Shown here piece by piece: positions 2,831 through 63,032 of a DNA stretch of 64,000 nt. The position numbers and the translations under genes are program-made. The DNA comes from Squalus acanthias (taxonomy: Eukaryota), in the NCBI GenBank assembly GCA_030390025.1, contig JASTWF010000034.1:2418001-2482000 (forward strand), written 5' to 3'. The notes below the pieces were generated by a model, which saw nothing but the letters and a program-made list of their open reading frames with translations, was not told the origin of the DNA and did not search any database. Numbering within the stretch: position 1 is the stretch's first letter; each line of letters begins with the position of its first letter.

Positions 2831-3454
2831 TTATACCGAGCATTGTTTATATGTACGGGTGACAACCAATCCGTTTGATGGTCCTTTTGTTATTAATGGC
2901 CATCTCCTATTTTTAAGCTTGTCGCTTTTCCTTTGTAACCTTATCTCCTCTGTTCTTCCCCTGATTTCCATCTGTCGTATTTGTCCTTGCCTGGGTCTCT
3001 CTTTGTGTACCACATTGAAACATCCTATCATTCCCGAATATATTTTACCTATTTTGGGCCAATTCAGTGTATTCAAACTCTGTCCCAGATATGGGATCCC
3101 CACGCTATTTGGTGTAATCTGAAACGCGTTGTCGAATCCTAACCCTAGATCTAAAAACTTTCCTTTTCCTAATTGAAACTTTGGGTTTACTTGAACATTG
3201 TCTTTAGCACATAGACGCTCTATTTTAATCCCTTCGCCCTCCCTGGCCCGTAAACAAGGAGTCCCATCGGTCGTATTATCGGGTTCGCAATAATCACAGT
3301 ACACAGTCAGATCGCATCCATCTCCTGAAGCCGCTTCCCATGATGACGTATCGTCGGTTGGCATCTTGACTCCTTTCTGGATGATGCTAACATTCGAAGT
3401 CTGGTCGATACCAACGAGCATCAGAAGTCCCACTATGCATCTGAGTCCTGCCAT
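2831..3454 (-). CDS. Env-position ORF with signal peptide (207 aa from ATG 3454), no transmembrane anchor
   Basis: Lies between integrase stop and PPT; preceded by splice-acceptor-like tttgttttcctccag; N-terminus MAGLRCIVGLLMLVGID; Cys cluster CDLTVYCDYC...C...C. Confidence 0.55.
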   Translation of the reverse strand: MAGLRCIVGLLMLVGIDQTSNVSIIQKGVKMPTDDTSSWEAASGDGCDLTVYCDYCEPDNTTDGTPCLRAREGEGIKIERLCAKDNVQVNPKFQLGKGKFLDLGLGFDNAFQITPNSVGIPYLGQSLNTLNWPKIGKIYSGMIGCFNVVHKERPRQGQIRQMEIRGRTEEIRLQRKSDKLKNRRWPLITKGPSNGLVVTRTYKQCSV

Positions 3455-3487
3455 TTTGGCCACCTGGAGGAAAACAAAGTGCAGTAT

Positions 3488-4490
3488 TTAGTCTTTCACA
3501 GAATTTAACTGATTGATAATGTACCATTTAGTTACTTTTGCCTTTTCCACTCTCCCTTTAGGGTACTGAACCAGATACACAGCTGGATTCAATGTATCCA
3601 CTATCGAGTCGGGTCCCTTCCATTTGGGGTCAAACGCATTTATCTTTTTCCCATAATTTAATACAATGACTTTATCACCTAGCTGATATTCAAAAAGTCG
3701 AACCTTCTGATCAAAGTATTTCTTGATTTGGTTTTTAGATTTCCCTAAATTGTTTGCCACGTGTCGGTTAACTTCATTAATATGCTCTACTGTGCGCTCC
3801 AACCACGAGTGGTTAGATGGTTTTTGCATGAGTGGGGTGGTGCCAGTCAAAGTTAGATGACCTGGAGTCCTCATAAACCTCCCAGTCATTGCCTGGTAAG
3901 GTGATATCCCCGTGGTCCTCTGTGGCGTGGACCGATTTGCCATTAAACACATGGGTAACATATTGACCCATTGAGTGGGATGTTCTGTACACAATTTTCC
4001 CAACATGGATTTCAGTGTGCGATTCCCTCTTTCCGCTCTCCTGGATGATTGTGGATGATGAGCTATATGTAGCTTATGTTTAATTCCCATAATTTTCTGT
4101 AATTAGGAAAAAACATCACCAGTGAAGTGGGTGCCCTGATCACTATCAACTTGAAGTGGCAGTCCCCACCTACAGAGCACCTCACTCAATAACAATCTGG
4201 CCGTGGTAAGCGCAGTGTTGGATCGGGAGGGGAAGGCCTCAATCCATCTCGTGAACTGGTCGATAACAGCGAGGGCGTATTTATAATTGCCCTGCGAAGG
4301 TGGGAGCGGACCAATACAATCAATTTGAACGTGAGTCCAGGGCGCATCAGGACCTGTCTGACTTCGAAGGTGGGCAAGGTTGGGACAAGGGGAGGGGTTC
4401 TGCTGCAAACACGGTACGCATCGGGAAACATAAATTTACAGTATCCTTCATATTAGGCCACCAGGCTGTGGAGCCAATCTTTGTGAAAGT
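3488..4490 (-). pseudogene. Retroviral/Ty3-gypsy-type integrase, disrupted
   Basis: PWTHVQIDCIGPLP, DSDQGTHFTG, HPQSSRRAERGNRTLK (DDE triad), TGISPY, WKGP; in-frame TAA at 4103-4105; upstream part cut off by a CR1 3' end at 4494. Confidence 0.92.
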
Positions 4491-5920: not shown

Positions 5921-5964
5921 GGCAGTTACACATGGTTTAGATACAGAGTAATGCTCCACTCACC

Positions 5965-8785
5965 TCACTTTAACACTCTGATATACCGCACACCATTCAT
6001 TTTAACACTCTGATATATCCCTCAGTTTAATCCTCTCTTACATATCGCTAACCTCTTACTGTAACAGACCGACATACCGCACTCACCTCACATTAACACT
6101 GTGATATACCCCGCAACCCTCAATGTAACACTCTGATATAATCCACACTGCTCACTGTAACACACTGATATACCCCACAACCCTCACTCTAACACTCTAG
6201 TATACGTCACTACACTCTGATATACCCACCATCCCTCACTGAAACACTCAGATACACCCCACCCTCTTAAATACCACAAACCTCTCACTGTAACACACTG
6301 ATATATCCCACACCCCTCATTGTAACACTCTGAGATGCCAAACACCCCTCACTGTAACACACTGATGATACACCCCACACCCCTCACTGATACATTCTGA
6401 TATACCCCACACCCCTCACTGTAACACTTTTATATTCCCCATGACCCTCACTGTAACACTCTCTGATATACACCAGACCCGTCACTGTAACACACTGATA
6501 TAGCCCACACCCCTCACAGTGACAATCTGATATACCCCACACCCCTCATTGTAACACTCTGATATACCCCACACCCCAGATTGTTACACTTATATACCCG
6601 ACACCCCTCACTCTAAAACTCTGATATACTTCACACCCCTCACTGTAAAACCTTGAGATAACTCAACACTGCTCATTGTATTACTCTGATATACACCATA
6701 CATACTCATTGTAACACTCTGATGTAAAACCACTACACTGACTATAACACTCTGATATAACCCACACACCCCTCACTTTAACACACCGATGTACCCCACA
6801 CCCCTCACTGTAACACATCGATATACCCCACACCCCACATTGTCACACTCTGATATAATCCACACCCCTCACTGTAACACTCTGATATATTCCACGCTCC
6901 TCACTGTAACACTGTGTTATACACCACACCCCTCACTGTAACACTGTGATACAACCCCTCACTTTAATCCTCTCTCACATTCCCAAAACTCTCACTGTAA
7001 TAGACCGATATACCCCACTCACCTCACTTTAACACTCTGATATATCCGACACCCCTCAATGTAATACTCTGATATACCCCACACCCCTCACTCTAACACT
7101 CTGATATAATCCACACCCCTCACTGTTACACTGATATACCCCACACCCCACATTGTAACACTCTGATATACCCCACACCCCTCACTGTTACACTGATATA
7201 CCCCACACCCCTCACTGTAACACTGATATACCACACACCGCTCACTGTAACACTGATATACCCCACACCCCTCACTGTAACACTGATATCCCCCACACCC
7301 CTCACTGTAACACTGATATACCCGACACCCCTCACTCTAACACTCTGATATACTTCACACCCCTCACTGTAAAACCCTGAGATAACCCAACATTGCTCAT
7401 TGTATTACTCTGATATAAACCATACATCCTCATTGTAACACTTTGATGTAAAGCCACTCCACTGACTATAACACTCTGATATACCCCACAAACCCCTCAC
7501 ATTAAAACACCGATATACCCCACACCCCTCACTATGATATAATCCACACCCCTCACTGTAACACTGATATAAACCACAACCCTCACTGTAACACAATGAT
7601 ATTCCCCACACCCCTCACTGTAACACTGATATAAACCACAACCGTCACTGTAACACAATGATATACCCCACACCCCCCACTCTAACATTCTGGTATACCC
7701 AACACCCCTCACTGTAACACAATGATATACCCCACACCCCTCACTCTAACATTCTGGTATACCTCACTACATTCTGATGTAGCCACACCGCACACTGCAA
7801 CACTCAGACACACCCCACTCTCGTTCATACCCCATAACTCTAACTGTAACACACTGATATACCCCACACCACTCATTGTAACACTCTGATAAACCCCGTA
7901 CACCTCACTGGAACACCCTGAGATACCGAACACCCCTCACTGTAACACTCTGATGATAAATCCCACACCCCTCATTGTAACATTCTGATATAACACTCAC
8001 CCGTCACTATAATAATCTGTTATACCCCACTCCCCTCACTGTAACACTCTGAAATAAACCACACCCCTCACTGTAACACTCTGATATACCACACACCCCT
8101 CACTGTAACATTATGATGTATCCCACACCTCTCACTGTAAATCTATGATATTACACACACTCCTGACTGTAACCCTCTCCTACATACCCCAAACCTCTCA
8201 ATGTAACACACCATTATACCCCACTCCCCTCACTGTAACACTCTCTGATATACTCCATACCCCTCGTTGTAACACTCTGATATAGCCCACAACCCTCGCT
8301 GTAAAACTGTGATATACCCAACAACCATCACTTTAACACTCTCTGATACGCCACACCTCTCACTGTAACACTCTGATATACCCCACACCCCTCGCTCTAA
8401 TACTGTAATATATCCCACAGCCTTCACTGTAACACTCTGTTATACCCCACACCCCTCGCTGTAATACTGTGATATACCCCACATAACTCTCTGCAAGACA
8501 CTGATAAACCCCACACTCTTCACTGTAACACTCTGATATACCCCACACCCCTCACAGTAACACCTATATACCCCACACCCCTCATTGTAACACTCTGATA
8601 TACCCCAACCTCCTCACTGTAACACTCTGATACACCCCGCAATGTAATCCTCTCTTACATACTGATATACCCCACACCACTCACTGTAACACTGATATGC
8701 CCCACACCCCTCACTGTAACACTCTGATACACCCCTCACTGTAATCCTCTCTTACACACTGATATACCCCACACCACTCACTGTT
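5965..8785. repeat. ~30-32 bp minisatellite (ccccacacccctcactgtaacact[ct]gatata)n
   Basis: Direct tandem repetition over ~2.8 kb. Confidence 0.96.
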
Positions 8786-8994
8786 GTCACTGCCACATTA
8801 GTACCATGGGCTTTACTTATGGTCATATGTGATACTTTATCAAGCACCTTTTGTAAGGATAGGGAAAATGGGAACGTGTGAGTAGTATCAATCATACAAA
8901 CATAGAATTGGTTACCCAAGTTGTGTTGACAATTTGACGCCCCACTCTAATAACAGGTCTGGTTTCAATCAATGAATTATAAAATCAGTGATTT

Positions 8995-11419
8995 TAATCT
9001 TATTTTATTGTAATGCAAGGAGTCTTGCGAGTATGGCAGATGAATTGAAGGTGTTGAAGAACACATGGGAGTATGATATTGTTGCTATCACAGAGGCATG
9101 GTTGAGGGAGGGGCAGGACTGGCAGCTCAATATTCCGGGATATAGAATCTTCAGGCGAGACAGAGGGGGGAGTAAAAGCGGAGGGGGTGTCGCAATATTA
9201 ATCAAGGAGTCAATTACTGCTGTAAGGAGGGATTATATCTTAGTAGGTTCCTCTAAGGAGGCCATATCGGTAGAACTTAAAAACAAAAAGGGGGCAAGCA
9301 CTTTGCTAGGAGTGTACTATAGGCCCCCAAACAATCAGGGGGAGATAGAGGAAAAGATACGCTGGCAAATCTCAGAGAAGTGCAGAAATAATAGGGTAAT
9401 AATAGTAGGGGATTTCAACTTCCCCAGTATTAAGTGAGATAGTCAGAGTGTGAAAGGCTTAGAGGGTGCGGAATTCTTGAAGTTCATCAAGGAGAGCTTT
9501 TTGAGCCAGCATGTAAAAAGTCCTACAAGAGAGGGGGCGGTACTGGACCTAATTCTAGGGAATGTAGCCGGGCAAGTGGTAGAAGTGTCAGCAGCAGAGC
9601 ATTTTGGTGACAGTGACCATAATTCGGTGAGATTTAAGGTAGTCATGGAAAAGGACAAAGACGGACCGGAAATAAAGTTTCTAAATTGGGGGAAGGCCGA
9701 TTTAAATATGATATGGCAGGATCTGGCCAAAGTGGACTGGAATCACAACTTGTAGGAAAATCAGAGCAGTGGAGTCTTTCCAGAAGGAAATAGGGAGAGT
9801 ACAACGCCAACAATTTCCAGTAAAGATCAAGGGTGGGACCAACAAGCCCAGGGAAACCTGGATGTCAAGAGCTATACAAGAATGGATTAGGAAAAAAAGT
9901 GAGGCTTTTGGCAGATGCAAAGGACTAAAAACAACGGAAGCCCTAAATGAGTGTAGAAAGTGCAGGGGGGTACTTAAAAAATGAAATCAGGAGAGCGAAG
10001 AGGGGGCCTAAAAAACACTGGCGGGCAAAGTAAAGGAAAATCCCAAGGTGCTTTATAAGTATATTAAGGGCAAGAGGATAACCAGGGAAAGAGTAGGGCC
10101 CATTAGGGACCAAAGTGGCAATCTGTGTGTAGAGCCGGAAGCTGTAGGTGAGGTTCTAAATGAATATTGTGCATCTGTGTTCACTATGGAATGACGATTT
10201 AGGCATAGAAATCAGGCAGGGGGATATTGAGATACTTGAACAAATTACTATTGAGAGGGAGGAGGTACTAGCGGTTTTAGCGGGCCTAAAAGCGGATAAA
10301 TCCCCAGGCCCAGACGAGATGTATCCCAAGCTGCTGTGTGATGCAAGGGAGGAGACTGCAGGGGCTCTGAAACAAATTTTCAGAAACTCTCTGGTCACAG
10401 GGGATGTGCCAGATGACTGGAGAACAGCTAAAGTAGTACCATTATTCAAGAAGGGTGGTATGGATAAACCAGGGAATTACAGATCAGTTAGCCTAAAATA
10501 GGGTAGGGAAATTATTGGAAAACATTCTGAGGGACAGAATTAGTCTCCACTTGGAGAGGCAAGGATTAATCAATGTTAGTCAGCATGTCTTTGTCAGGGG
10601 GAGATCATGTCTGACCAATTTGATTGAACTATTCGAGGCCCTGACTAGGTGTGTGGGTGCGGGTAGTGCAGTTGATGTAGTCTACATGGACTTCAGTAAG
10701 GCTTTTGACAATGTCACACATGGGAGACTGGTCAAGAACGTAAGAGACCACGGGATCCAGGGCAATTTGGCACGTTGGATCCAAAATTGGCTTAGTGGTA
10801 GGAGGCAGAGGGTATGGTCGAAGAATGTTTTTGTGACTGGAAGCCTGTGTCCAGTGCTGTACCGCAGGGATCGGTGCTGGGTCCTTTGCTGTTTGTAGTG
10901 TACATTAATGATTAGATTTGAATGTAGGCGGTATGATCAGCAAGTTCGCAGATGACACGAATATTTTTGGAGTGGTAAATAGCGAGGAGGGAACCTCAGG
11001 CTACAGGACGAAATAGGCGGGATGGTTAGATGGGCAGAACAGTGGCACATGGAATTTAACCCTGCAAAATGTGAGGTGATGCATTTTGGGAGGACTAACA
11101 AGGCAAGAGAATATACATGAATGTTAGGACCCTAGGAAGGACAGAGGATCAGATGGACCTTGTTGTGCATGTACATAGATCCCTGAAGGCAGCAGGACAG
11201 GTGGTTAAAAAGGCATATGGAATACTTGCATTCATTAGCCGTGGCACAGAGTATACGAGTAGGGAGGTTATGATGGATCTGTACAAAAAGCTGGTTACGC
11301 CACAGCTGGAATACTGTGTGCAGTTCTGGTCACCACACTATGGGAAGGATGTGATTGCATTGGAGAGTTTGCAGAGGAGATGCACCACGTTGTTACCTGG
11401 GCTGGAGCGCTTCAGCTAT
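8995..11419 (+). mobile_element. CR1 LINE ORF2 (APE endonuclease + RT), decayed; 5' part, interrupted by LTR element
   Basis: YCNARSL, AITEAW, YYRPP, GDFNFP, SDHN, KSPGPD, DFSKAFD, FADD-like motifs with stops and frameshifts. Confidence 0.95.
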
Positions 11420-13103
11420 TGTAAGGGTTTGCGTGCGTGTCTCTCAGCCTGTGAGATTCGCGCGGCTCTGTGCAGCCTGTGTGTCAGTGCGGGTTTAGGC
11501 CTTGTTGCATGTTCTGGTCACCAGCCAGTCTGGGAACACTAGACACACCTGTGAGTGGTTCGAATCACTCGCCCTTACGGTTCTAGACACTGGACTTAGA
11601 TGCGAGAGCAGTAATGGAGATGAAACTCATGTAGACTCGGTTGAATGGTACGAAATGGAAAAATCTTTATTGCATAATATTTAAGATTACGAAATACATG
11701 TCATAAGCACAGATTAATGACAGTACAATCTTACACGCAGTTATGTAGCTAATTCTAGGGAAACGAGGAACGAACGACACACCGTAAATGGGGGCACACA
11801 TTACAAGTATCCTTAATACTTAAACCCTCCCCTATCAATATCTGTCCTAGCTAGATTCGTAGGATTCGAGACTCATGCTCACCACTCGTGATAACTCGGA
11901 GAAATTCCGAATAGCTGATCGGATGTTTTCACCGCAGCACCCACGTGTCGATCAGGGGGTCTCCTGGCCCCACTTGTTTACTTGCTTCTGCTCCGGCTAG
12001 CAGGCTGGAACGTCTGTTGTTATGAAGATCTGTGTTGGTTGGTTTCACGTACCAGTCAACACTTAAGAGAATAATCTCTCGGTGTCCGTCATGAGGATCT
12101 GCCCTGATGGGTTTCACAGATCAGTCAATATCTCAAAGAAGAATCTTCCGGCGTCCGTTCTTTAAAGTTCAAAGAAGTCTTCCTGGCAAGGAGAAATGTC
12201 TATTCGACCTACAGGCGCGGCCGGGGCTTACTGACCGTGGCGCTAAGTATGGTCTTCGTCTCTTCTCATCTCATCTCATCTCTTCTCGGGCCTTTGGTTC
12301 CGATGCCGGTTACCAACACAGGTCTTCGTGACACGACACGAGGTAGATCCGAACGGATCACAAAGTTCAACAGTCTTTTAAAAGAGACACCAGGCAAACA
12401 GGAACAAGACGGCGAGTCAAGAACACAGGAGCAGCCACGAGGATGAACACCAGCAAGATAAGAGGATAAGAGAGAGATGGACGGTTGGAGCTTGTAATTA
12501 TAGTACAAAATCTTCCGTTTCCCGCCCAACCTTAATGTCTTTTCCTTTTGTTAGGGTTTGGCGCTCAAATGTCTTGTATAGGTGATCTCCGGTTTTAATG
12601 GGTTGCGGGGCTACTCGTGAATGTCTGAGTACCTGTAAATTTTTCTCCCATTGTTAAATCGGTCGGTGTTCTCCCTGGAGGGGTTTTGGGGCTTCCAAGT
12701 GTTTTCTGTAACTACCCGCTAACGGCTCTCTCATCGTAGAGTCGTTGGGATTTTACATATTAATGTCTTTGGATGGGCCCTTGATTACTTGGTACAATAG
12801 CCTTTATTCGTACCCGGGAGACCGATTTCAGTATCTATGTGTATACTGCAAACCCATGATGTCTCGTGTATTATCTTCAATGTGCTGAATCTTAATCGAT
12901 CTTGCACAAATGTTTATTGGAACGCCATCTTGTCTGTCTGTCGAAAAGTCTAGAATGTTCCGCCACGAGGTGCGGCGGCCATTTTACAGGCTGCTTGTGT
13001 CCACTTTGAAAACCTGACAGCATTCTGCTGAAATAAAGCTGTTTGAACGAAACTATGTGTTTTCTCCTTATTTATAAAATCGCGATATATTGCAAATTCT
13101 ACA
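11420..13103 (-). repeat. 3' LTR (1684 bp)
   Basis: Direct repeat of 19170-20853; minus-strand AATAAA at 11666-11671. Confidence 0.97.
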
Positions 13104-13115
13104 GTCCCTCCTGTT
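13104..13115 (-). other. Polypurine tract
   Basis: AACAGGAGGGAC immediately before the TGT of the 3' LTR. Confidence 0.8.
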
Positions 13116-13552
13116 GATGCGAATAACTCCGCTTATCGTATCAAAAATATTGTGGTGAGCAATATTATCTCGATTTTCTCCGAATCCAGAAAATTAATCC
13201 CATAACTTAACCTAGCTAGGGTCTTTGTGTCGTCCTTATTTCCCAAGAAAATTACATTTTATAGCACCGTAGGCATTATTTGCCTTTAAACTTACACCAC
13301 TTGTTTTCCTTCCAGGCGTAACCAGGCCGATGCCTCTCGTATCACCTGTATATTCACATTTTTTATTCAGTGAAAAGAAAAACAAAACCCAAAACCAAAC
13401 AATCATTTTTAACTACAACACCATCACCAAAATAATCAACACCAACTCTTAAAACATGTCGAGTTCCCAACGTATTTACAGTCTTTAAAAATCATGATCG
13501 AGTACAAACTTCCGCGGCGCACGTGGCGAGCGGGATTGACGCCATTTTCCGA

Positions 13553-15904
13553 TTACACGGTGCTTTCATCGTGCACGCGCACGTAACGTTCTCGCCACTC
13601 TCCCGTGTTTTCATGCTTGGTGAGGCGTTTATCTCTTTTACAATGGACGACCAATAGGTACACTACAATGAAAACTTGGCATACGACTAAAATGTGGGAG
13701 GCTATTCTGATCCATGAAGGCACTTCAATATTGGTGAACAGATTCCACCACGGTGGAATTACTATATCCAGAATGTCTGTCCCTATTTCGACAGTTTTCT
13801 GTTCTAATGTGTAAAAATGTTTCTGTGACACCGCGACGGCTTTTAAAAGCTTGGTGAGGTGTTCAGGGAGAGGGGGAATGATGTATCCGAAATGCGCGAC
13901 GAATCGCTGCAAGTCGGTGAAATTCTCTTTTACTGTGAGATGAACAGTGGATGGTTCAGGGATTGGGACAATTCGCTGTTGTGCTACTTGAACTTCCGCC
14001 CTGGGTTTGAAACAGAAACTGCTGTCACTCACCGGACACCGGCTACGGTTTCCATGCTGGTAGTGTTGCGCTGCAGTGGTAACACAATATGTTCCACCCC
14101 CGATGTATGCTACCTGCGGAGGCACATGATCTTGTGCCATTGCCTCCATGGTGCAATTCATGGACTTGGCGCCAGCCGTTCTGAACCCGCACTGTGGTGT
14201 TAAAAAGGCATTCAAGTGCTGGGGGCACAGTATTATGTGTGCTCCCCTGCCACGACAACCAGAGAGATCTGTACCTGTCATCGTTTGCTCCCAGCGGATG
14301 ACGTAGGGTGGAACCGCTGCATAGCGAATGTGGGCTCCCCCCTGAATGACACCAATGTTCTCTACCCGATACACCGGGGCGGGCTTTGCTGTGTCGCCCA
14401 AAACCGGCATACGTAAAACTATACCCATAATGGTATGGTTTGATCGTCCACAGTCCACGGGGACTGGGTATGCTTCTGAAGCTAGCCTGAGCTGGCACGG
14501 GCTTAATGCGTTCTGAAAAGGGTGGAGCGCCCGCAGGTGTTTGTTACTTATCCAGGACGGGACCAAACCTTGTTTTAAATCCTCCAAATTACTGCGGCCC
14601 TCGCCCAGTAACCACGCCCCGTAAAGCACGCACACCTCGTTCTGCGCAGCTTGATCGGATGCATTCCGATCTTCCCTAATCAGGGCATTTACCGTTCTCG
14701 CGTGTTTCTCTAGTTCAGCTATTATTTCTTTTAAATGGAGAGTCATGGCTTGGTCCTCGTGTAAACCCGACCCAACCACTTTATTTTCATCTGTGAGAAT
14801 GTCTTTTAATTGCGTTTTTAAGCCATTAATCTGGGTCTGCAGCTCCACACTGTCTAGAGCGTTGACCACAGATGTACCTGTGTTGAAAGCAGTGAACGCG
14901 TCGTTCACAACACCCCTTCTTTGCCTCCCTACTTGATCCGAAACTTCATGTGGTGCGGTGTACAAACTTGTTTTATCAATTTCCGCAAAATCGAATTCGT
15001 AAAATTGTCTGAACATCTTGGTCAACAGGACCTGATACAACTGTTCCGTCTTTTTGGGGCACCACTCTGTTAACCGCACCTCGGTGAGATTTAAAATCAC
15101 CGAGGCCACCGCGTAATGTACTCCCTGAAATAGTATCTGGTCTGTGGGGACCAGTACCAAACCATTCCCGGGTCCCTTACTAGTTTTAGGGCACCCTTCT
15201 TCCTTAGCTAGAACCACCGGAATCGTGGGCGGGGCTTTGCGTGGGCGCGTAATGAGTTCAGTGGCATTTACCGGGATCGAAGAGTATGGGGCTCCGCACC
15301 CCCTGGTGCTTGCATCCCACCTCATCCCCTGTCCGTTATCCTGCCATTGATTAATGAAAAATATGGAGATGCCTTTGGGGCAAGCGTACTTTGACCCCCA
15401 CATGCATACATACATTCCCTCATCCGGTTCCCACCATTTGTCCCAACAGACTCTCACTTGTCCGTTTGTCCCCGTAATTGTCCGATGGGTATTATTACCC
15501 AGTCGTTCCCACTCGACCGAAGAGTTCCTCATAGTTTTGCTCAGCTTTCGCAGCCACCACCATCGGCTCAATGGGACATTCCCACTACAAGTCAAACAAA
15601 TCCGTTTGCCGACGGTGACGCTGATCCTGGGTGCGATGATCCTTACTTTGGGGCACATTAAAGAAGTCTCTTGGTAGGCAAACCCCGATGTGCTGGAATA
15701 CTCAGTCGAGTTCGTTCCCAGCCATCCTGGCCACCTTCCCTTGTGGAAATAGGTGGTGGTCTCCTCAGCCTCCCGTTTTCCGGTCCCATCCACCGCGATG
15801 GGGGCCGTGTCCCCGGAGCATCCAAACACCACGACATCCTTGGTGCGGCCTCGATAGGCCAATCCACATCCGATTGCCGCGAGCAATACTAGAATTCGTT
15901 CCAT
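13553..15904 (-). CDS. env: Envelope/class I fusion glycoprotein with N-terminal Ig-like domain (783 aa from MERIL; ORF open from 16063)
   Basis: Signal peptide MERILVLLAAIGCGLA; furin site RQRR (14915-14926); fusion peptide plus heptad repeat; Cys-rich region; C-terminal TM (ILVVCQVFIVVYLLVV); tail with YVRV. Confidence 0.88.
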   Translation of the reverse strand: MERILVLLAAIGCGLAYRGRTKDVVVFGCSGDTAPIAVDGTGKREAEETTTYFHKGRWPGWLGTNSTEYSSTSGFAYQETSLMCPKVRIIAPRISVTVGKRICLTCSGNVPLSRWWWLRKLSKTMRNSSVEWERLGNNTHRTITGTNGQVRVCWDKWWEPDEGMYVCMWGSKYACPKGISIFFINQWQDNGQGMRWDASTRGCGAPYSSIPVNATELITRPRKAPPTIPVVLAKEEGCPKTSKGPGNGLVLVPTDQILFQGVHYAVASVILNLTEVRLTEWCPKKTEQLYQVLLTKMFRQFYEFDFAEIDKTSLYTAPHEVSDQVGRQRRGVVNDAFTAFNTGTSVVNALDSVELQTQINGLKTQLKDILTDENKVVGSGLHEDQAMTLHLKEIIAELEKHARTVNALIREDRNASDQAAQNEVCVLYGAWLLGEGRSNLEDLKQGLVPSWISNKHLRALHPFQNALSPCQLRLASEAYPVPVDCGRSNHTIMGIVLRMPVLGDTAKPAPVYRVENIGVIQGGAHIRYAAVPPYVIRWEQTMTGTDLSGCRGRGAHIILCPQHLNAFLTPQCGFRTAGAKSMNCTMEAMAQDHVPPQVAYIGGGTYCVTTAAQHYQHGNRSRCPVSDSSFCFKPRAEVQVAQQRIVPIPEPSTVHLTVKENFTDLQRFVAHFGYIIPPLPEHLTKLLKAVAVSQKHFYTLEQKTVEIGTDILDIVIPPWWNLFTNIEVPSWIRIASHILVVCQVFIVVYLLVVHCKRDKRLTKHENTGEWRERYVRVHDESTV

Positions 15905-16201
15905 CCTTCCTTGGTTCCTGTGATCAGATAGAATGAGGTAGCCAGCCTCGCAAGAGTCTCTGGCTTTTGTGAAGGGTGAGCGGGTCCCCTGACCTCGCCT
16001 CACGTAAACTTCAACGTTCGCTGAATAAACTTTAACTAAACCTATCTCTAAAGCTCCCATCATTTTACCATTTTCTGTTAAAATTAAACTACAAACTTAA
16101 CCTTATTTAAAACTATAAACTTATAACCTTAAACTATAAACTTAGAAACCTATCCTAAACTTATTACTGTACAGCGCCGCCCGTTCTCAGGGCGGCCCCC
16201 T

Positions 16202-17356
16202 TTAAATTCTGAGAAGGCTGCTGCGAGCTCTTCCCGACGGTGGGAGGGCTCTGACCTTTTCCTCTGATCTGCCGCAGCCTGTTGCTGCACTGACCCCTTC
16301 CTCTGATCTGCCGCAGCCTGTTGCTGCTGCGATGGGGCCGGGCTGTATCTGGGCTGCCTTAACCTTGAGCCTACGCCTTGGGACAGTCTGGGGCCATACC
16401 CACATCTTCCTGGGCTGGGGTTCTCTACTTGACCTACGGGGAGTTGTCGGGGGCAGGAATCCCATGACCGACGTACCGGGTTCCGAGACTTCCACCGGGA
16501 CGACCTGTGGTTCCACCACAGTCGCTGGCTCCGCCTCCGCTGACTCCGCCTCCCTAACCTCGGGACTTGCAGCTTGTGGCTCCGCCCTGCTCGGCCCAGC
16601 AGGCGGCCCTTCACTCGCGATCCCTGCCTCCCCCGAGGGCGGGACGTTCAAAGCGGGCGGCTCGGGCTCGGAGGTTCTCACCGTCACTCCCTGTGGTCTC
16701 ACAGCGGCTGGCTCCGCCTCCCCTAGCTCCTCCCTCCTGTGTTCGGGACCTGCAGCCTCTGTGTCCACCCTGTGCGGATCTCCATCTGCAGCCCGTGTCC
16801 TCCCTATACCTAAAATGGGGGCGACCCTTTCGTTCCCCAAATCCCCCTCGTCTTCATCACTATCCTCATCTGACTCGAGTTCCCGGAATTCTCCCTCATC
16901 TGACTCCCAACCCCACAAAAATGCTTCATGATCTTCCAGGATGTCTCCTCCCCTGATGCAAGCTGCTTTGCCTGCCTGTGTGCCTTGTGGTCCTACCTGG
17001 GGCTGCGCTTCCCCACTCGCGGGGTTTACCCCTGTGGTTTTCCCTTGCGCACCTGGCTTGTACAGTTTGCACTGGTTTACATCCTCATACTCCCGGCTTT
17101 TGGCTACCCTGTAGGCTGCTTTTATCTCACTAAGCTGCGCTTCTAGCCTGAGCACGTCTAACTTTCCCATTGATCGGGCGTTCTCCTCCCGCAGGGCCTG
17201 CTCTCTAAGCTGCCCTTCCAGCCCATCTATTTTCCCTATTAAGCGGGCGTTCTCCTCCCGCAAGGCCTGCTCTTTTAACCTGGCCTCCTCACCGCAGACC
17301 CCTTCCTGTGCGTGTCTTTTAAAAGGACACAGGTAGGCAGGCTGCGTGGGCTCTAG
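16202..17356 (-). CDS. ORF2: coiled-coil/acidic/Pro-rich protein in frame with gag (probable readthrough extension, 384 codons)
   Basis: No stop from 17356 to 16205; same frame as gag; no protease, RT, RNase H or integrase motifs. Confidence 0.7.
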   Translation of the reverse strand, partial: LEPTQPAYLCPFKRHAQEGVCGEEARLKEQALREENARLIGKIDGLEGQLREQALREENARSMGKLDVLRLEAQLSEIKAAYRVAKSREYEDVNQCKLYKPGAQGKTTGVNPASGEAQPQVGPQGTQAGKAACIRGGDILEDHEAFLWGWESDEGEFRELESDEDSDEDEGDLGNERVAPILGIGRTRAADGDPHRVDTEAAGPEHRREELGEAEPAAVRPQGVTVRTSEPEPPALNVPPSGEAGIASEGPPAGPSRAEPQAASPEVREAESAEAEPATVVEPQVVPVEVSEPGTSVMGFLPPTTPRRSSREPQPRKMWVWPQTVPRRRLKVKAAQIQPGPIAAATGCGRSEEGVSAATGCGRSEEKVRALPPSGRARSSLLRI

Positions 17357-19165
17357 TCATTGGGTACTATTAGACGGTCCTGCGGCACCTACGGGGCCGG
17401 TAGCAACCGCCACCTTTCCATGTGCGCTCAATAATTTGCGCATGGCTCCCAACACTACTTCGAGGTCGTCGGGAGGGGTGGGTGCACTAGCTTCCCTAGC
17501 AGGGACAGGCGTCTGGGCTCGGGCTGCGGGAATTTTATCCCTGGAATCCTTCCAAGGGTTCCTGCAGTTCTTGCGCCAGTGCCCTGTCTTCCCACACCCG
17601 TAACAAGCATTACTTGCCTGCGGGGCGCGATTACCCTCCTGATGCCACTCCCTTTGATACGGGGCTGCGGGTCGTACCTCATGTACTTTTCCCTTAAGGG
17701 GACGTGTTCCCATACCCCTTATATTGCGATATCCTAACGTGAGTCGATTCAAGACCGACTCTTCCGTAATGTTGGGGTCATTGGGATCAAACCATGCTTT
17801 TGCCTGCTCTCTGACGGCTGGTAAACTGTTGGCTACTATGCACCTAAGCCAATGATTTAAACCGGCGCCGTCCATATCGTCGCGCTCTAGCGCACCTAGA
17901 CAGCTGCGCTGATATACTGGCCACAGCCTGTCGGCAAAAACCTTCGGGGGTTCTCCCTCCATCTGCACTGTCTGTCCCAAACTAGCAAACGGACCTTCAT
18001 CGTCCGCCCCCAACACTTCCAGGACCTCATTCTTTAATGCCTCATAAGTCTTGGTTCCCCTCTTGCTCTCGCCCGAGAGACACTGAAGGATTGAACTGCC
18101 TAACGAAAACAACAGCATTTTTGCTGTTTCCCCATCATCGCAGCCGTTAATGGCTGCGGTTTGCTCAACTTCTCTGAAATGTACGGAAGGGTCGTCTAAC
18201 TCGGTCAGCTTCCGTACATGATTTATCATAACTCTCAGCTGGTGTGAGCTGTGAGGCAACACAAGCTGGCCGAGGAGATCCCCTGGTTCCTCCCCACCGT
18301 TTCTGTTTGGGCCCCTTTTTATACCCGTTACTGGATACAACGGTCCCTTTTCCACTTCTTTCTCAATGGGCTCTTTCGTTTCTTCCACTACTTCCTCCCT
18401 TACCCAGGTTTCCGAATAGCTGGGTGGCGCGGAGGGCGCAGTGGCTAATACTTCCTCTGCTTTACTTGGTGGGGACTTCTGAAACTCCTCTTTTACTAGC
18501 GGCTGGTGTGCTGACGGACTGATAAGGCACACCATGCCGTGCGCTTTGTTCACGGCCTTTTTGAGGTGCTCTATCTCCTTTTGGCAGGCGCTATGATCGG
18601 CTCCCTGAAACTTATCCTCAAGGGCCAAATTATATGCCGCCCTAACCCCCGTTAAGCTCTCTTCCTGAGTTCTTATCTGGGCAGCTTGGCGGGCACATCG
18701 TTCCTTTAATCTGCCCTCATTTAACTTTGCCTCAGTGACCTGGCACTCGAGGTAATCTATCCTTGTTTTATGTTGACTGGAGATTTCCTGGCGTTCTTGG
18801 TGCAGCGCACTTAAATTCCTAATGAGCAATTCCCCTCCAGAGACCTTCTCATCCATTTCTCCCTCTAAATGACTGATTCGAGCTGTTAGCGCTGTAATGA
18901 CCTGGTTTGAAATCTGGACCTGCCTTTTGTAACACATTAGCCAGACTGCTTTCTCGATTGTCTTTTTATGTTCCTTACTATCTGTCCACCTTTCGGCTGC
19001 CTCTAGTGGACTCTTATCCGCTAACAATTCACTTATCCATTTCTTAGTTAGATTAACCTTTCCGAACACATAATCTGCTATCTTTTCCTTCATAACATTT
19101 CGTACAGTCACACCAAAGTCTAACACACTACCCTCTCGCTGCCAGTGTCCTGCCGCGGTCGCCAT
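17357..19165 (-). CDS. gag: Gag polyprotein (602 aa)
   Basis: First ORF after 5' LTR; coiled-coil N-terminal half, PSAPPSY late-domain-like motif, capsid-like QMEGEPPKVFADRL, CCHC knuckle CYGCGKTGHWRKNC. Confidence 0.93.
   Translation of the reverse strand: MATAAGHWQREGSVLDFGVTVRNVMKEKIADYVFGKVNLTKKWISELLADKSPLEAAERWTDSKEHKKTIEKAVWLMCYKRQVQISNQVITALTARISHLEGEMDEKVSGGELLIRNLSALHQERQEISSQHKTRIDYLECQVTEAKLNEGRLKERCARQAAQIRTQEESLTGVRAAYNLALEDKFQGADHSACQKEIEHLKKAVNKAHGMVCLISPSAHQPLVKEEFQKSPPSKAEEVLATAPSAPPSYSETWVREEVVEETKEPIEKEVEKGPLYPVTGIKRGPNRNGGEEPGDLLGQLVLPHSSHQLRVMINHVRKLTELDDPSVHFREVEQTAAINGCDDGETAKMLLFSLGSSILQCLSGESKRGTKTYEALKNEVLEVLGADDEGPFASLGQTVQMEGEPPKVFADRLWPVYQRSCLGALERDDMDGAGLNHWLRCIVANSLPAVREQAKAWFDPNDPNITEESVLNRLTLGYRNIRGMGTRPLKGKVHEVRPAAPYQREWHQEGNRAPQASNACYGCGKTGHWRKNCRNPWKDSRDKIPAARAQTPVPAREASAPTPPDDLEVVLGAMRKLLSAHGKVAVATGPVGAAGPSNSTQ
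19147..19164 (-). promoter_or_regulatory. Primer binding site (tRNA-Arg type)
   Basis: TGGCGACCGCGGCAGGAC, 5 nt after the 5' LTR; complementary to ...GTCCTGCCGCGGTCGCCA, the vertebrate tRNA-Arg(TCG) 3' end as I recall it. Confidence 0.85.
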
Positions 19166-19169
19166 TTTC

Positions 19170-20853
19170 TGTAAGGGTTTGCGTGCGTGTCTCTCAGCCT
19201 GTGAGATTCGCGCGGCTCTGTGCAGCCTGTGTGTCAGTGCGGGTTTAGGCCTTGTTGCCTGTTCTGGTCTCCAGCCAGTCTGGGAACACTAGACACACCT
19301 GTGAGTGGTTCGAATCACTCGCCCTTACGGTTCTAGACACTGGACTTAGATGCGAGAGCAGTAATGGAGATGAAACTCATGTAGACTCGGTTGAATGGTA
19401 CGAAATGGAAAAATCTTTATTGCATAATATTTAAGATTACGAAATACATGTCATAAGCACAGATTAATGACAGTACAATCTTACACGCAGTTATGTAGCT
19501 AATTCTAGGGAAACGAGGAACGAACGACACACCGTAAATGGGGGCACACATTACAAGTATCCTTAATACTTAAACCCTCCCCTATCAATATCTGTCCTAG
19601 CTAGATTCGTAGGATTCGAGACTCATGCTCACCACTCGTGATAACTCGGAGAAATTCCGAATAGCTGATCGGATGTTTTCACCGCAGCACCCACGTGTCG
19701 ATCAGGGGGTCTCCTGGCCCCACTTGTTTACTTGCTTCTGCTCCGGCTAGCAGGCTGGAACGTCTGTTGTTATGAAGATCTGTGTTGGTTGGTTTCACGT
19801 ACCAGTCAACACTTAAGAGAATAATCTCTCGGTGTCCGTCATGAGGATCTGCCCTGATGGGTTTCACAGATCAGTCAATATCTCAAAGAAGAATCTTCCG
19901 GGGTCCGTTCTTTAAAGTTCAAAGAAGTCTTCCTGGCAAGGAGAAATGTCTATTCGACCTACAGGCGCGGTCAGGGCTTACTGACCGTGGCGCTAAGTAT
20001 GGTCTTCGTCTCTTCTCATCTCATCTCATCTCTTCTCGGGCCTTTGGTTCCGATGCCGGTTACCAACACAGGTCTTCGTGACACGACACGAGGTAGATCC
20101 GAACGGATCACAAAGTTCAACAGTCTTTTAAAAGAGACACCAGGCAAACAGGAACAAGACGGCGAGTCAAGAACACAGGAGCAGCCACGAGGATGAACAC
20201 CAGCAAGATAAGAGGATAAGAGAGAGATGGACGGTTGGAGCTTGTAATTATAGTACAAAATCTTCCGTTTCCCGCCCAACCTTAATGTCTTTTCCTTTTG
20301 TTAGGGTTTGGCGCTCAAATGTCTTGTATAGGTGATCTCCGGTTTTAATGGGTTGCGGGGCTACTCGTGAATGTCTGAGTACCTGTTAATTTTTCTCCCA
20401 TTGTTAAATCGGTCGGTGTTCTCCCTGGAGGGGTTTTGGGGCTTCCAAGTGTTTTCTGTAACTACCCGCTAACGGCTCTCTCATCGTAGAGTCGTTGGGA
20501 TTTTACATATTAATGTCTTTGGATGGGCCCTTGATTACTTGGTACAATAGCCTTTATTCGTACCCGGGAGACCGATTTCAGTATCTATGTGTATACTGCA
20601 AACCCATGATGTCTCGTGTATTATCTTCAATGTGCTGAATCTTAATCGATCTTGCACAAATGTTTATTGGAACGCCATCTTGTCTGTCTGTCGAAAAGTC
20701 TAGAATGTTCCGCCACGAGGTGCGGCGGCCATTTTACAGGCTGCTTGTGTCCACTTTGAAAACCTGACAGCATTCTGCTGAAATAAAGCTGTTTGAACGA
20801 AACTATGTGTTTTCTCCTTATTTATAAAATCGCGATATATTGCGAATTCTACA
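19170..20853 (-). repeat. 5' LTR (1684 bp)
   Basis: Direct repeat of 11420-13103, followed by PBS and gag. Confidence 0.97.
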
Positions 20854-21272
20854 CTATGAAGAGAGACTGGACAGGCTGGGGTTGTTTTCCTTAGAGCAGA
20901 GAAGGCTGAAGGGGGACCTGATAAAGGTGTACATAATTATGAGGGGCGTAGATAAGGTAGAGAGAAATGAACTTTTCCTCTAAGTAGAGTGGTCTATAAC
21001 CAGGGGGCATAGTTTCAAGGTAAGGGGCAGGACGTTTAGAGGGGATTTGAGGAAAACTTCTGGAATCTGGAACTCACTGCCTGAAAGGGTGGTAGAGACA
21101 GGAACCCTCACAACATTCAAGAAGAATTTAGATGAGCACTTGAAACGCCATAGCATACAAGGCTATGTACCATTTGCTGGAAAATGGGGTTAGAATAGAC
21201 AGGGCTTGATGACCGGCGCGGACACCTTGGGCCGAAGGGCCTTTTTCTGTGCTGTATAACTCTATGACTTTA
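20854..21272 (+). mobile_element. CR1 LINE 3' end (continuation of 8995-11419)
   Basis: Resumes YEERLDRLGLFSLEQRRL; ends ttctgtgctgtataactctatgact. Confidence 0.93.
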
Positions 21273-22766: not shown

Positions 22767-25667
22767 TCATGCTTTAATGAATTTTACAATCAGAGTAAAG
22801 GGATATTTTCCCACATTCTTCAACTGCTCTCTGAACTTAGTCTGGGTCACGGCGTAAATTCCAGTGTTTGTGCAGCAACTCAGCAGCTGCAGCATGAATC
22901 CCAGTTCCTGAACATAACTAGCTGGATATGCAGACACAGATCCCAAATGCCATATCCGGCTCCATATAGAATACACCATAAACACTACCCATAACAGGAT
23001 GAAATTGCCGGAGATAACAAGCAGTAAAATGATGGATTTCCTGCGGCTCTCCATCTCTGGGTCTCTGGGACTGTCCCCACTGGTGGGACCCCTAAGTCTC
23101 CTGCGGGCTCTATTGGCCACCAAAATGTGTCTGACGGTGAAAGTATTGAGCAGCAGAATCACCACAAATGGGACACACGGGGTGATAATATAATGAAGGA
23201 GCTCGATTGTTCCCCAGACCCGTGAATACTGAACATCCATTGTGATATCACAAAACCACGGGTTGTTCACAAGCCAATACTGATCTGTGTACATAAAATA
23301 CCAGGTGATGTCCTTTAAAGCGCTCAGCACAGTCACTGTTCCCAGAACCACAGCCGCCGTTTTCTCGGTGCAATATTTAGTTTTCAGCTTCTGGCTACAA
23401 ATGGCCACAAATCGATCAAAGGTGAAAGTGACGGTGAACCAGACAGAACAGTCTGTGGCTGCGAACAGCAGGACGACGTGGATATTACACACGGGGATGG
23501 ACTGCACGAAATAAAACTGTTCCCTATAAACAATGGGAATGTGCCTCAATATCAGGTCGAGGATAACGACCAGTAGATCCGCCGCTGCCATGGCCACCAG
23601 GTAGCGAGTGACACATTTGGAGAGTCCACACTTTCCCCGAAACACTCACCCGTCATCGGGAACATCCTCCCCGCATCCACCCGATCCAACCCCTTCACAA
23701 TCTTATATGTTTCAATAAGATCGCCTCTCATTCTTCTGAACTCCAATGAGTAGAGTCCCAATCTACCCAACCTCTCCTCATATGACCACCCCCTCATCCC
23801 CGGGATTAACCGAATGAACCTTTTTTGCACTGCCTCGAGAGCAAGGATGTCTTTCCTTAAGTAAGGACACCAAAACTGTATGCAGTATTCCAGGTGCGGT
23901 CTCACCAATACCTTGTACAACTGAAGCAATACCTCCCTATTTTTATATTCTATCCCCCTAGCAATGAAAGCCAACATTCCATTTGCCTTCTTCATCACTT
24001 GCTGCACCTGCATACTAACCTTTTGAGTTTCGTGCACCAGGACCCCCAGATCCCTTTGCACTTCAGTACTCTCCAGTTTCTTGCCATTAAGATAATAAAT
24101 TGCTCTAGGATTTTTCCTGCCAAAGTGCATCACCTCACACTTTCCAGTGTTGTATTCCATCTGCCAAATCTCTGCCCACTTACTTAGCCTGTCTATGTCC
24201 CCTTGCAGGTTTTTTATGTCCTCCTCATTCACTACTTTCCCTCCCATCTTTGTATCATCTGCAAATTTTGATATGTTACACTTGGTCCCTTCCTCCAAAT
24301 CGTTAATATAGATTGTGAAGAGTTGGGGACCCAGCACTGACCCCTGTGGAACACCACTAGTTACTGATTGCCAGTCTGAGAATGAACCATTTATACCAAC
24401 TCTTTGCTTTCTGTTAGATAGCCAATCCTCTATCCATGCCAGAATATTACCCCCAATTCCGTGATTTTTTACCTTAAGCAATAATCTTTTGTGTGGCACC
24501 TTGTCAAATGCCTTTTGGAAGTCTAAATACACTACGTCCACTGGTTCCCCTTTATCCACTCTATATGTTACTTCCTCAAAGAACTCCAGCAAATTTGTCA
24601 AACATGACTTCCCCTTCGTAAAACCATGCTGACTTTGTCCTATTAAATTATGATTATCCAAATGTCCTGTTACTGTTTCCTTAATAATGGACTCCAAAAT
24701 TTTACCTACCACAGATGTTAGGCTAACCGGTCTATAGTTACCAGCCTTCTGTCTACTGCCCTTTTTAAATAAGGGTGTTACATTAGCAGTTTTCCAGTCT
24801 GCCGGGACCTTAGCGGAATCCAGGGAGTTTTGAAAAATTATTACCAATGCATCTACAATCCCTACCGCCACTTCCTTCAAGACTCTAGGATGTAAGCCAT
24901 CAGGTCCAGGTGATTTATCCGCCTTGAGTCCCATTATTTTACCGAGTACCACTTCCTTAGTGATTTTGATCGTGTTTAGCTCCTCTCCCCCTATAGCCCC
25001 CTGTTTGTCCAGTGTTGGGATATTCTTAGTGTCCTCTACTGTAAAGACTGATACAAAATATTCATTCAGTGTTTTTGCCATCTCCATATTTCCCACCATT
25101 AATTTCCCGGTCTCATCCTCTAAGGGACCAACATTTACTTTAGCCACCCTTTTTCTTTTATATAACTATAAAAACTCTTACTATCTGTTTTTATATTTTT
25201 TGCTAATTTACTTTCATAATCTATCTTCCCTTTCTTAATCAATCTTTTTGTTATTTTTTGCTGCCTTTTAAAGTTTTCCCAATCCTCTGTCCTCCCACTA
25301 GATTTCGCTACCTTATATGCCCTTGTTTTTAGTCGAATACTATCCTTAATTTCTTTACTTAGCCACGGATGACTGTCCTTTCTTTTACACCCTTTTCTTT
25401 TCAGTGGAATATATTTTTTTTGGAAGTTGTAAAATAACTCCTTGAATGTACACCACTGATCATGTGTCGTCTTACCCTTTAATCTATTTTCCCAATCCAC
25501 TCTACTCAATTCCGCTCGCATACCTTCATAGTCTCCTTTATTCAAGCTTAGCACGCTTGTTTGAGATCCAACCTTCTCACCCTCTAATTGAATATGGAAT
25601 TCAACCATGTTATGGTCACTCATTCCAAGGGGATCCTTTACTAGGATCCCAATCGTCACTAAGTTCA
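22767..25667 (-). pseudogene. GPR139-like class A GPCR, exon 2 (25667-25643 + 23643-22767), split by CR1 insertion
   Basis: Acceptor tttctcacag at 25668; rejoined frame (V)NLVTIGIL-FRGKCGLSKCVTRYLVAMAAADLL; FTFDRFVAIC, PCVPF, CCTNTGIY motifs; six further hydrophobic segments. Confidence 0.88.
23645..25642 (-). mobile_element. Internal CR1 ORF2 fragment (late endonuclease to post-RT), one frameshift
   Basis: ORFs 25135-25642 and 23552-25147 with KSPGPDG, DFQKAFD, GVPQGSVLGP, FADD; no 3' UTR or tail. Confidence 0.95.
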
Positions 25668-37651: not shown

Positions 37652-37990
37652 AAGAAAGGAAGAAAGAATTGAATTGATACGGCGCTTTTCACGATCTTGG
37701 GATGTGCTTTCAAGTCAATGACGTCCTTCCTTTTGAAGTGAAGTCACTGTTGTACTGTCGGAAACTTGGCAGCCAATTTGAGCACAGCAAGCTCCCACAA
37801 ATAGCAATGTGATAATGACCAGATAATCTGCTTTAATGATGTTGATTGAGATAAATATTAGCCAGAACACCGGGGTTAACTCTGCTGCTCTTCTTCAATA
37901 TAATTCCATGGGATCTTTTACGTCCAACTTATAGAACAGACAGTTCTAACGTCTCATCTGAGACATGGCACCGCTGACAGTGCAGTGCTC
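37652..37990 (-). mobile_element. Deu-like SINE, reverse orientation
   Basis: Reverse complement of ~30230-30570. Confidence 0.78.
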
Positions 37991-38298
37991 CCTCAGTACT
38001 GACCCTCTGACAGTGCAGTGCTCCCTCAGGACTGCCCCTCTGACAGTGCACTGCTCCATCAGTACTGCCCCTCTGACAGTGATGCGCTCCCTCAGTACTG
38101 CCCCTCTGACAGAGATGCGCTCCCTCAGTACTGCCCCTCTGACAGTGCAGTGCTCCCTCAGTACTGCCCCTCTGACAGTGATGCGCTCCCTCAGTACTGC
38201 CCCTCTGACAGTGCAGTGCTCCCTCAGTACTGCCCCGCTGACAGAGATGCACTCCCTCAGTACTGCACCTCCAACAATGCAGCACTTTCTCAGTACTG
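37974..38298. repeat. 33-bp minisatellite (ctgacagtgcagtgctccctcagtactgcccct)n, ~10 units
   Basis: Direct tandem repetition. Confidence 0.95.
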
Positions 38299-38301
38299 GC
38301 T

Positions 38302-56559: not shown

Positions 56560-56815
56560 TTTAATCACTCCACCATTGGTGGCCATGCCTTCAGCTGCCT
56601 GGGCCCTAAGCTCTGGAATTCTGTCCGTAAACTTCTCTGCCTCTCTCTCCTCCATCAAGACGCTCCTTAAAAATTACCTCTTTGACCAAGCTTTTGGCTA
56701 TCTGCCCAAATATCTCATGCGGCTCGATGTCAAATGTTGTTTGATACACTCCTGTGAAGCGCCTTGGGACGTTTTACTACGTTAAAGGCGCTTTATAAAT
56801 ATAAGTTGTTGTGTT
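56560..56815 (+). mobile_element. L2 LINE 3' end
   Basis: gccttcagctgcctgggccctaagctctggaatt...gtgaagcgccttgggacg...gctttataaatataagttgttg. Confidence 0.75.
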
Positions 56816-56864
56816 TTGCTTATTTCCTATTTAAGAATTAACAATTAACTTTACGCCATTGTTT

Positions 56865-59800: not shown

Positions 59801-59865
59801 TAACCATTACCTAACAGTTTTACCCTGTGTATTGGTTATTATACCCAATTTAACAATTAACTAAC
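56865..59865. repeat. 50/52-bp AT-rich satellite, ~58 copies
   Basis: ccaatttaacaattaact[gt]gacagttttaccctgtgtattggttatcatac tandem array. Confidence 0.98.
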
Positions 59866-60107
59866 TTTATGCTCTTGTGTATTATTTATCAAGTCAAATT
59901 TAAATAACTATAGCTTTCGTTTCCCCTCTATGCTTAATATGTCAATTTGTACAAATAATTGCAACGGTCTGAATAAAATAATAAATAAGACCAGGAGTAG
60001 GTCCTGTGCTGCAACCTGTTTATTAGTTTTCATGTCCAATTTATCAATCAACAGTGCCTTTTTTCCTCGCTGTATTGGTTACCACTTCCATTTTAAAACC
60101 ACCTGAA

Positions 60108-62935: not shown

Positions 62936-63032
62936 CTACATGCAGGAAGATTGTGACAAATGGAATTCAATCCGGAGAAGTGTGAGGTAATGCATTTGGG
63001 GAGGGCTAACAAGTCAACGGATCCTGCACTGA

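Follow-up and report, generated by a model that had tools for sequence, protein, structure and literature searches.

A pol-less, lokiretrovirus-like provirus of Squalus acanthias whose pol slot carries a Gag-like helix that shares the gag frame across a UGA-CUAG stop

The window analysed here is a stretch of 64,000 nucleotides of Squalus acanthias (assembly GCA_030390025.1, contig JASTWF010000034.1, forward-strand positions 2,418,001 to 2,482,000), and all coordinates are those of the window. Its minus strand carries, at 11420-20853, an element of 9434 nt (9.4 kb) arranged as LTR-gag-ORF2-env-LTR and without pol. There are three long frames within the element: gag (602 aa from its ATG), ORF2 (384 codons) and env. 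The element is bounded by a 4-bp target-site duplication, CTAT (11416-11419 and 20854-20857), and its flanks are what we take, by eye, to be CR1-type LINE-like sequence. The features are the following.

19170..20853, minus strand: 5′ LTR, 1684 nt, TG...CA, 99.58% identical to the 3′ LTR (7 mismatches)
19147..19164, minus strand: primer-binding site, overlapping the gag ATG (position and sequence)
17357..19165, minus strand: gag, 602 aa, with a long N-terminal coiled coil, capsid and CCHC knuckle (ORF, Pfam, model)
17353..17359, minus strand: gag stop in the readthrough context UGA-CUAG, with ORF2 in frame behind it (sequence; PMC4132726; lokiretrovirus gag ends)
16202..17356, minus strand: ORF2, 384 codons, first Met at codon 63, with a predicted Gag-ORF2 readthrough product of 987 aa (ORF, sequence)
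17294..17356, minus strand: ORF2 aa 1-21, probable 5′ stub of pol (judged by position, the sequence likeness being weak)
17081..17293, minus strand: ORF2 aa 22-92, end of a Gag-type coiled coil, tandemly duplicated once with a 23-codon period (profile match, model, pN/pS)
17054..17080, minus strand: ORF2 aa 93-101, VNQCKLYKP, probable junction (likeness to the last motif of lokiretrovirus integrase)
16205..17053, minus strand: ORF2 aa 102-384, probably disordered, acidic and Pro/Glu-rich tail (low pLDDT; no Gag profile match)
16663..16772, minus strand: repeat 2, first copy (71% over 113 nt)
16477..16589, minus strand: repeat 2, second copy (71% over 113 nt; copies 61 codons apart)
16253..16330, minus strand: repeat 3, a 39-nt tandem in two copies (sequence)
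13553..16096, minus strand: env, likely Met at 15904, with a signal peptide, a possible Ig-like part, an RQRR cleavage site, a heptad region and a C-terminal hydrophobic segment
13104..13115, minus strand: polypurine tract (sequence)
11420..13103, minus strand: 3′ LTR (comparison of the LTR pair)

The LTRs, primer-binding site, polypurine tract and target-site duplication are intact, and PR, RT, RH and the IN core are absent, as expected of a non-autonomous ERV. In Pfam searches no enzyme domain was found in the Gag, ORF2 or Env frames, and a weak CCHC knuckle was found in Gag only. The primer is presumably tRNA-Arg(UCG); tRNA-Ser was considered as a candidate and dropped. Because the primer-binding site overlaps the gag ATG (19147-19165, minus strand), the first Gag residues are encoded by the primer tRNA sequence, and the Gag relatives P0005, P0009 and P0015 likewise start with MATAAG.

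Contigs of four sequencing runs from four organisms, all of them DNA-type or unlabelled runs, cover each of the 30 bins of the element, ORF2 included, in 4/4 runs. The contigs matched to the element number 10257, 3528, 812 and 228 in these runs and contain many variants; their depth over the element is not a copy number. The element is multi-copy and has been mobile recently, the LTRs being 99.6% identical. Searches of viral, metagenome and prokaryote collections with Gag, ORF2 and Env as queries gave no related loci. In P0017, P0019 and P0030, proteins of other records, Gag pieces are fused straight to Env pieces in frame, which indicates that products of internal deletion arise often in this lineage; in P0030 the same Gag helix end is fused to the start of Env.

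Gag has an N-terminal coiled coil and a retroviral/Ty3-type capsid, as in lokiretroviruses, the capsid likeness in the model and Foldseek being weak (E 4e-3 at best). Its model contains a 120-residue helix (64-183) and a helical core, for which the best Foldseek rows are HIV, HTLV and MLV capsids at E 4e-3 to 3e-2, with none at E <= 1e-3. Queried against 1.84 billion representatives, Gag gave 29 matches. Ten of these were looked up, and they comprise five named shark proteins, one Xenopus protein and four proteins without a name.

Env has relatives in Rhinoraja longicauda (75%) and Pristiophorus japonicus (58%). The RQRR site and the heptads were recognized by eye, and Pfam and PDB sequence searches gave no match to paramyxovirus or pneumovirus F. 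The N-terminal part (about 15390-15670, minus strand) may contain an immunoglobulin-like domain (Pfam Ig_3, E 0.29; JAM-A, E 0.37). A sawshark protein named Niban 1-like (P0036) belongs to this Env family over its first ~260 aa; an ERV insertion was probably merged into a gene model here. The AT-rich spacer that precedes the env Met (about 15915-16200, minus strand) carries repeats similar to GTTTATAGTTT and two putative splice acceptors.

An earlier note on this DNA had placed an open frame in the pol slot. The frame is there, on the minus strand between gag and env, and is longer than claimed: it opens directly after the gag TGA, in the same frame as gag and 66 nt upstream of the earlier boundary, and extends over 384 codons (16202-17356). 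The other two frames contain 19 and 18 stops over the same stretch, and with this base composition a run of 384 open codons has a probability of about 1e-6. There is no Met before codon 63, which falls inside the helix described below, and no start of its own was found for ORF2, a spliced mRNA aside.

The stop codon that separates gag from ORF2 stands in a known readthrough context. Readthrough is 1.5% with UGA-CUA alone and, in human cells, about 3.5% (MDH1) to 31% (OPRL1) with natural CUAG contexts (PMC4132726). In the supplement of PMC7947760, four lokiretrovirus consensus sequences have a separately listed Gag; by eye, UGA-CUA follows gag in 4/4 and UGA-CUAG in 3/4 of them. The frame behind these four stops is open in the stretch shown and has a common motif, V-Y-[FL]-V-[GD]-W (by eye), to which the likeness of ORF2 is weak (A-Y-L). 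In one diverged contig of run X6, L-E-P-x-Q-P is kept after the gag stop with mostly third-position changes (by eye). No readthrough-stimulating 3′ structure or hairpin beyond chance was detected at the gag stop (z -1.0). From the four cases checked (4/4), a UGA-CUA(G) gag-pol junction appears to be common to lokiretroviruses, and it was not found in print: the main text of PMC7947760 and that of PMC9040795 do not contain the word "readthrough" (0 occurrences), and the contexts listed for fish and frog retroviruses in the relevant part of a 2026 review are other UGA contexts (PMC13517186). With the UGA-CUAG context intact, some readthrough is likely. Its place in frame behind UGA-CUAG and the lack of an own start make ORF2 most likely a C-terminal addition to Gag that is made via readthrough, and not the separate capsid-less protein proposed before.

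It had also been proposed that ORF2 is a second Gag, on account of four short colinear similarities to the Gag of this element. For the first of them, the coiled coil, the similarity is real homology. Three Gag profiles, two built from 14 close relatives with and without the own Gag and one from 19 relatives with the own Gag, all match ORF2 at about aa 46-97 with 17 bits (E about 7e-8), also without the own Gag. None of the shuffles (1000 global, 1000 ten-residue-window and 2000 heptad-preserving per profile) reached 17 bits; 885-2000 per set returned a score, and their maxima were 4-15 bits. The first motif scores 29-36 against three Gag relatives and 27 against the own Gag, and a better score against relatives is as expected of family homology. 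The HHalign comparison with shuffled controls suggested earlier had a mixed outcome: the helix profile match lies beyond all shuffles, but hhalign itself gives a probability of 29-40%, for the helix alone. The pairwise similarity of ORF2 and Gag is marginal (19/500 shuffles), and Pfam gives one sub-threshold coiled-coil match on ORF2.

The other three motifs fared differently. Their summed score is 69, and the best three-segment colinear chain scored at least 69 in 300/300 shuffles of either kind. Against three Gag relatives they fade to 0/0/0, 14/16/16 and 10/4/2, so that these similarities are at chance level. On the three Gag profiles, scores range from -6 to +1 bits for aa 93-384 together with four sub-pieces, and from -2 to -4 bits for aa 93-384 alone. 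As judged from these profiles, the Gag-like part of ORF2 is only about aa 22-97, i.e., ~75 aa. The single-sequence model agrees in outline with helices at aa 20-59 and 65-97 (pLDDT 75-94); beyond aa 97 it has low pLDDT and no secondary structure, which in a model of this type is weak evidence for disorder. The claim that the capsid core and zinc knuckle are absent from ORF2 was confirmed by both Pfam and this model, in which no structure follows aa 97.

The helix is ~30% identical to Gag in protein, and no DNA similarity was found between ORF2 and gag. An origin of the helix from this element's own gag at the DNA level was ruled out, the identity being 35-43% and the best windows no better than controls. 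In pairwise comparison the helix is closest to the Gag of another lineage (P0004). This match and the low DNA identity suggest that the helix was captured from a diverged relative or an old copy. The P0004 Gag has its own 18-aa duplication at the same place as the duplication in the ORF2 helix. No homologue of ORF2 was found among 8000 candidates of near length and 2064 shorter ones, a size range below that of a Pol ending in such a tail, and the ESM Atlas gave no usable match for either part of ORF2.

Where the Gag match ends, ORF2 continues with V-N-Q-C-K-L-Y-K-P (aa 93-101). In the supplement of PMC7947760, W-V-H-x-N-Q-[IL]-[KR] closes 19/21 of the lokiretrovirus Pol ends shown (23 are in the list). 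A pattern drawn from these ends has its single match among the window's 127996 six-frame residues at ORF2 aa 94; it was found in 143/200000 ORF2 shuffles, a figure that is optimistic since the pattern was drawn up after the likeness had been noticed. ORF2 lacks the W-V-H before the NQ motif and has C at the I/L position. Pfam gave no match for the junction piece, and a loose end at 17079 (2 contigs, agreement 0.7) was not readable as integrase sequence. The published lokiretrovirus integrase tails in the ends shown measure up to about 35 aa (by eye), in contrast to ~290 aa in ORF2. ORF2 aa 102-384 are probably an integrase C-terminal tail enlarged by duplications, an origin to which one short junction motif points.

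The internal duplications named in the earlier note are all present, with one correction. The EQALREENAR pair is a duplication of 77% identity over 92 nt, and its period is 23 codons, not 22. The EAEPA..SEP pair was confirmed as two copies of 71% identity over 113 nt, 61 codons apart, and the A(A)TGCGRSEE pair, given before as AAATGCGRSEE, is the 39-nt tandem. Between the helix copies pN/pS is 0.29 (20 codons) or 0.37 (23 codons), with p 0.005-0.012, in a window picked for protein likeness; the 10-codon core has 2 synonymous and 0 nonsynonymous differences. The copies of repeat 2 have a pN/pS of 0.88, i.e., neutral divergence. The duplicated helix has been under protein-level constraint at some time, here or in the donor Gag; the constraint is possibly inherited from the donor, given the separate duplication that the Gag of a relative (P0004) carries at this position.

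Variation among the copies gives a different picture of the tail. From 617 listed differences the 40 best supported were taken, with subfamilies and species mixed, and 37 of these lie in coding frames. Synonymous changes make up 12/15 in env, 5/12 in gag and 0/10 in ORF2 (Fisher p 1e-4 for ORF2 against env and 0.04 against gag), although 0/10 is not significantly below neutral (p 0.056). None of the ten ORF2 variants is nonsense, and all of them fall in aa 171-354, with none in aa 1-170. Thus, the tail looks unconstrained in its residues but open.

Another open frame (16150-16647, minus strand) runs across the end of ORF2, with a Gln/Ala-rich stretch and a motif HRREEL, and Pfam gave no match for it. 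HRREEL echoes ORF2 aa 205-210 (68/2000 shuffles, before correcting for three frames). Three of the five listed variants there are synonymous in the overlapping frame and none in the ORF2 frame, and a one-base indel just past the ORF2 stop is present in most contig depth of all four runs. These observations hint weakly at a shifted reading frame, now or in the past, for the last ~90 codons of ORF2.

The best explanation of the locus is a young, helper-dependent, lokiretrovirus-like provirus in which pol was replaced by a chimera, consisting of the pol readthrough signal and first codons, ~70 Gag-helix codons, and an integrase end motif with its tail. We give this explanation as a whole, chimeric ORF2 included, a probability of roughly 0.55. 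The coiled-coil end of Gag, duplicated once, was probably acquired from a diverged Gag by template switching. Most ribosomes would stop at the UGA and yield the 602-aa Gag, and a few percent would read through UGA-CUAG and yield the 987-aa Gag-ORF2. This product would enter particles via its Gag part, as Gag-Pol would, and RT and integrase would be supplied by Pol-bearing relatives acting as helpers. What is kept would then be mainly an open, translatable frame that acts in cis, on RNA stability or packaging, while the tail residues drift. A benefit of ORF2 translation in cis would have precedents: the fusion ORF of the mouse IAP 1-delta-1 element promotes retrotransposition in cis (PMC6466679), and MLV RNA is protected from NMD by readthrough (PMC4917968). 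The pN/pS of the helix copies counts against a passive passenger, except if the donor Gag was where the duplication arose.

The same values lend themselves to another reading, in which the chimeric anatomy is retained but the captured, duplicated helix is a selected module: a second coiled coil that would serve as an adaptor or Pol mimic, engage helper Gag or Gag-Pol and favour packaging of the element's own RNA. Besides the low ratio between the copies and the purely synonymous differences in their core, this agrees with the confident prediction of the helix and with the coverage of ORF2 in contigs of all four runs and organisms. The choice of the pN/pS window by protein likeness weakens the argument, and the P0004 Gag makes it conceivable that the duplication predates the capture; we regard the selected module as unlikely. 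Decidedly unlikely is the picture of a satellite-like provirus with Gag and Env whose enzymes were replaced by a captured, duplicated Gag coiled coil, dosed by the old Gag-Pol readthrough switch and kept as an adaptor or Pol decoy that engages helper Gag-Pol. At the opposite extreme, ORF2 might be untranslated or irrelevant debris whose open state reflects nothing more than a young deletion product that happens to be in frame. The near-identical LTRs, the uniformly nonsynonymous tail variants and the hints of another frame in the last ~90 codons would fit. Against this stand the intact UGA-CUAG, which makes some readthrough likely, the frame that stays open across the junction and three duplications, and the age of the helix: at ~30% identity to Gag and with copies 25% apart in DNA there was time for stops, yet none occurred. 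Debris is thus very unlikely.

The proposal that ORF2 is a second Gag survives in part, since its ~75-aa helix is Gag-derived. In its full form, the whole of ORF2 would be an old, decayed gag duplicate with coiled coil, linker, capsid remnant and C-terminus, kept as an accessory or competitor protein. The alignment of the widest profile does continue to aa 192 across the Gag linker. ORF2 aa 173-215 also align with Gag capsid 385-427 without gaps, 13/43 residues being identical, a match reached by 4 and 9 of 2000 shuffles, and this match lifts the best colinear ORF2-Gag chain above nearly all shuffles (score 117, reached by 1 and 9 of 300). However, it lacks the family's conserved Q, F-A, R-L and Y, scores at most 27 against 11 relatives and has a DNA identity of 46% (59/129), equal to the reversed-gag control. 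For these reasons it is probably a chance match, but one that keeps the second-Gag reading alive. Beyond the helix the remainder of ORF2 has no profile support, motifs 2-4 are at chance level, and the capsid fold, the CCHC knuckle and an own start are absent. A decayed Gag would also leave unexplained the integrase-like motif located where the Gag match ends (aa 92-97). An entire second Gag is therefore very improbable, and the chimera with a readthrough signal remains the reading that we prefer.

In its probable readthrough chimera and its likely dependence on helpers, the element can be compared with several known systems. It is probably a relative of lokiretroviruses, an assignment that is made on features other than RT and RNase H. 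Like the lokiretroviruses or lokiorterviruses, it has a Gag with an N-terminal coiled coil ("smc", in the order smc-gag-pol) and a capsid fold (PMC7947760; PMC9040795), and it resembles them in UGA-CUA at the gag end, the integrase-end motif and the basic cleavage site of Env. It differs in having no pol, hence neither RT nor the dual RNase H as defining features, and in an ORF2 tail far longer than the published integrase tails. The idea that the lokiretrovirus "smc" is a separate ORF comparable to ORF2 was dropped, as the supplement, in part at least, gives smc-gag-pol only. A screen of 2020 detected lokiretroviruses in 0/6 chondrichthyan genomes (PMC7947760), and a lokiretrovirus-like family in cartilaginous fish, as represented by 11420-20853, was not found in print.

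The mouse IAP 1-delta-1 element (PMC6466679) is likewise a non-autonomous ERV in which a deletion created a novel gag-pol fusion ORF and which uses helper proteins in trans. Here, in contrast, gag is whole and env is kept, and the chimeric part lies behind a readthrough stop with an inserted, duplicated Gag helix and is not a plain gag-pol join. Zebrafish BHIKHARI (Bik-1; 10.1101/2024.03.25.586437) is a recently active pol-less loki relative with a coiled coil and capsid Gag, for which complementation by a partner is assumed; it has a single ORF, and no env or second frame is described in the available text. The canid CfERV-Fc1(a) (PMC6407205) resembles the element in that defective proviruses with common lesions spread by trans complementation, but it is gammaretroviral, and the accessible part of the report mentions no chimeric ORF. 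In the literature searched, largely outside subscription journals, there was no case comparable to a Gag helix in the pol slot behind a readthrough stop. Helper-dependent proviruses with leftover fusion frames are already known; what is unusual here is that gag and env are both kept, that the readthrough switch is kept and that a Gag helix occupies the pol slot. Many copies in several organisms allow a direct test of whether such frames persist for their protein or for being translated.

Other parts of the window contain further elements. A second, decayed retroviral element of a different family lies at 2831-4102 (minus strand), with the C-terminal half of an integrase (MLVIN_C, E 0.01) and a very short tail. 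Its integrase ends with K-W-Y-I-I-N-Q-L, an in-window example of an integrase end motif, and an env-like frame with a signal peptide follows the integrase half. At 22767-23645 (minus strand) there is a single-exon frame that resembles a rhodopsin-family GPCR (DRF motif; by eye); a CR1 fragment immediately precedes it, and a 27-bp tandem array follows downstream. Minisatellite arrays occur at 5950-8800, 37900-38400, 56700-60000 and 62100-63000, with units of ~32, 33, 52 and 75 bp.
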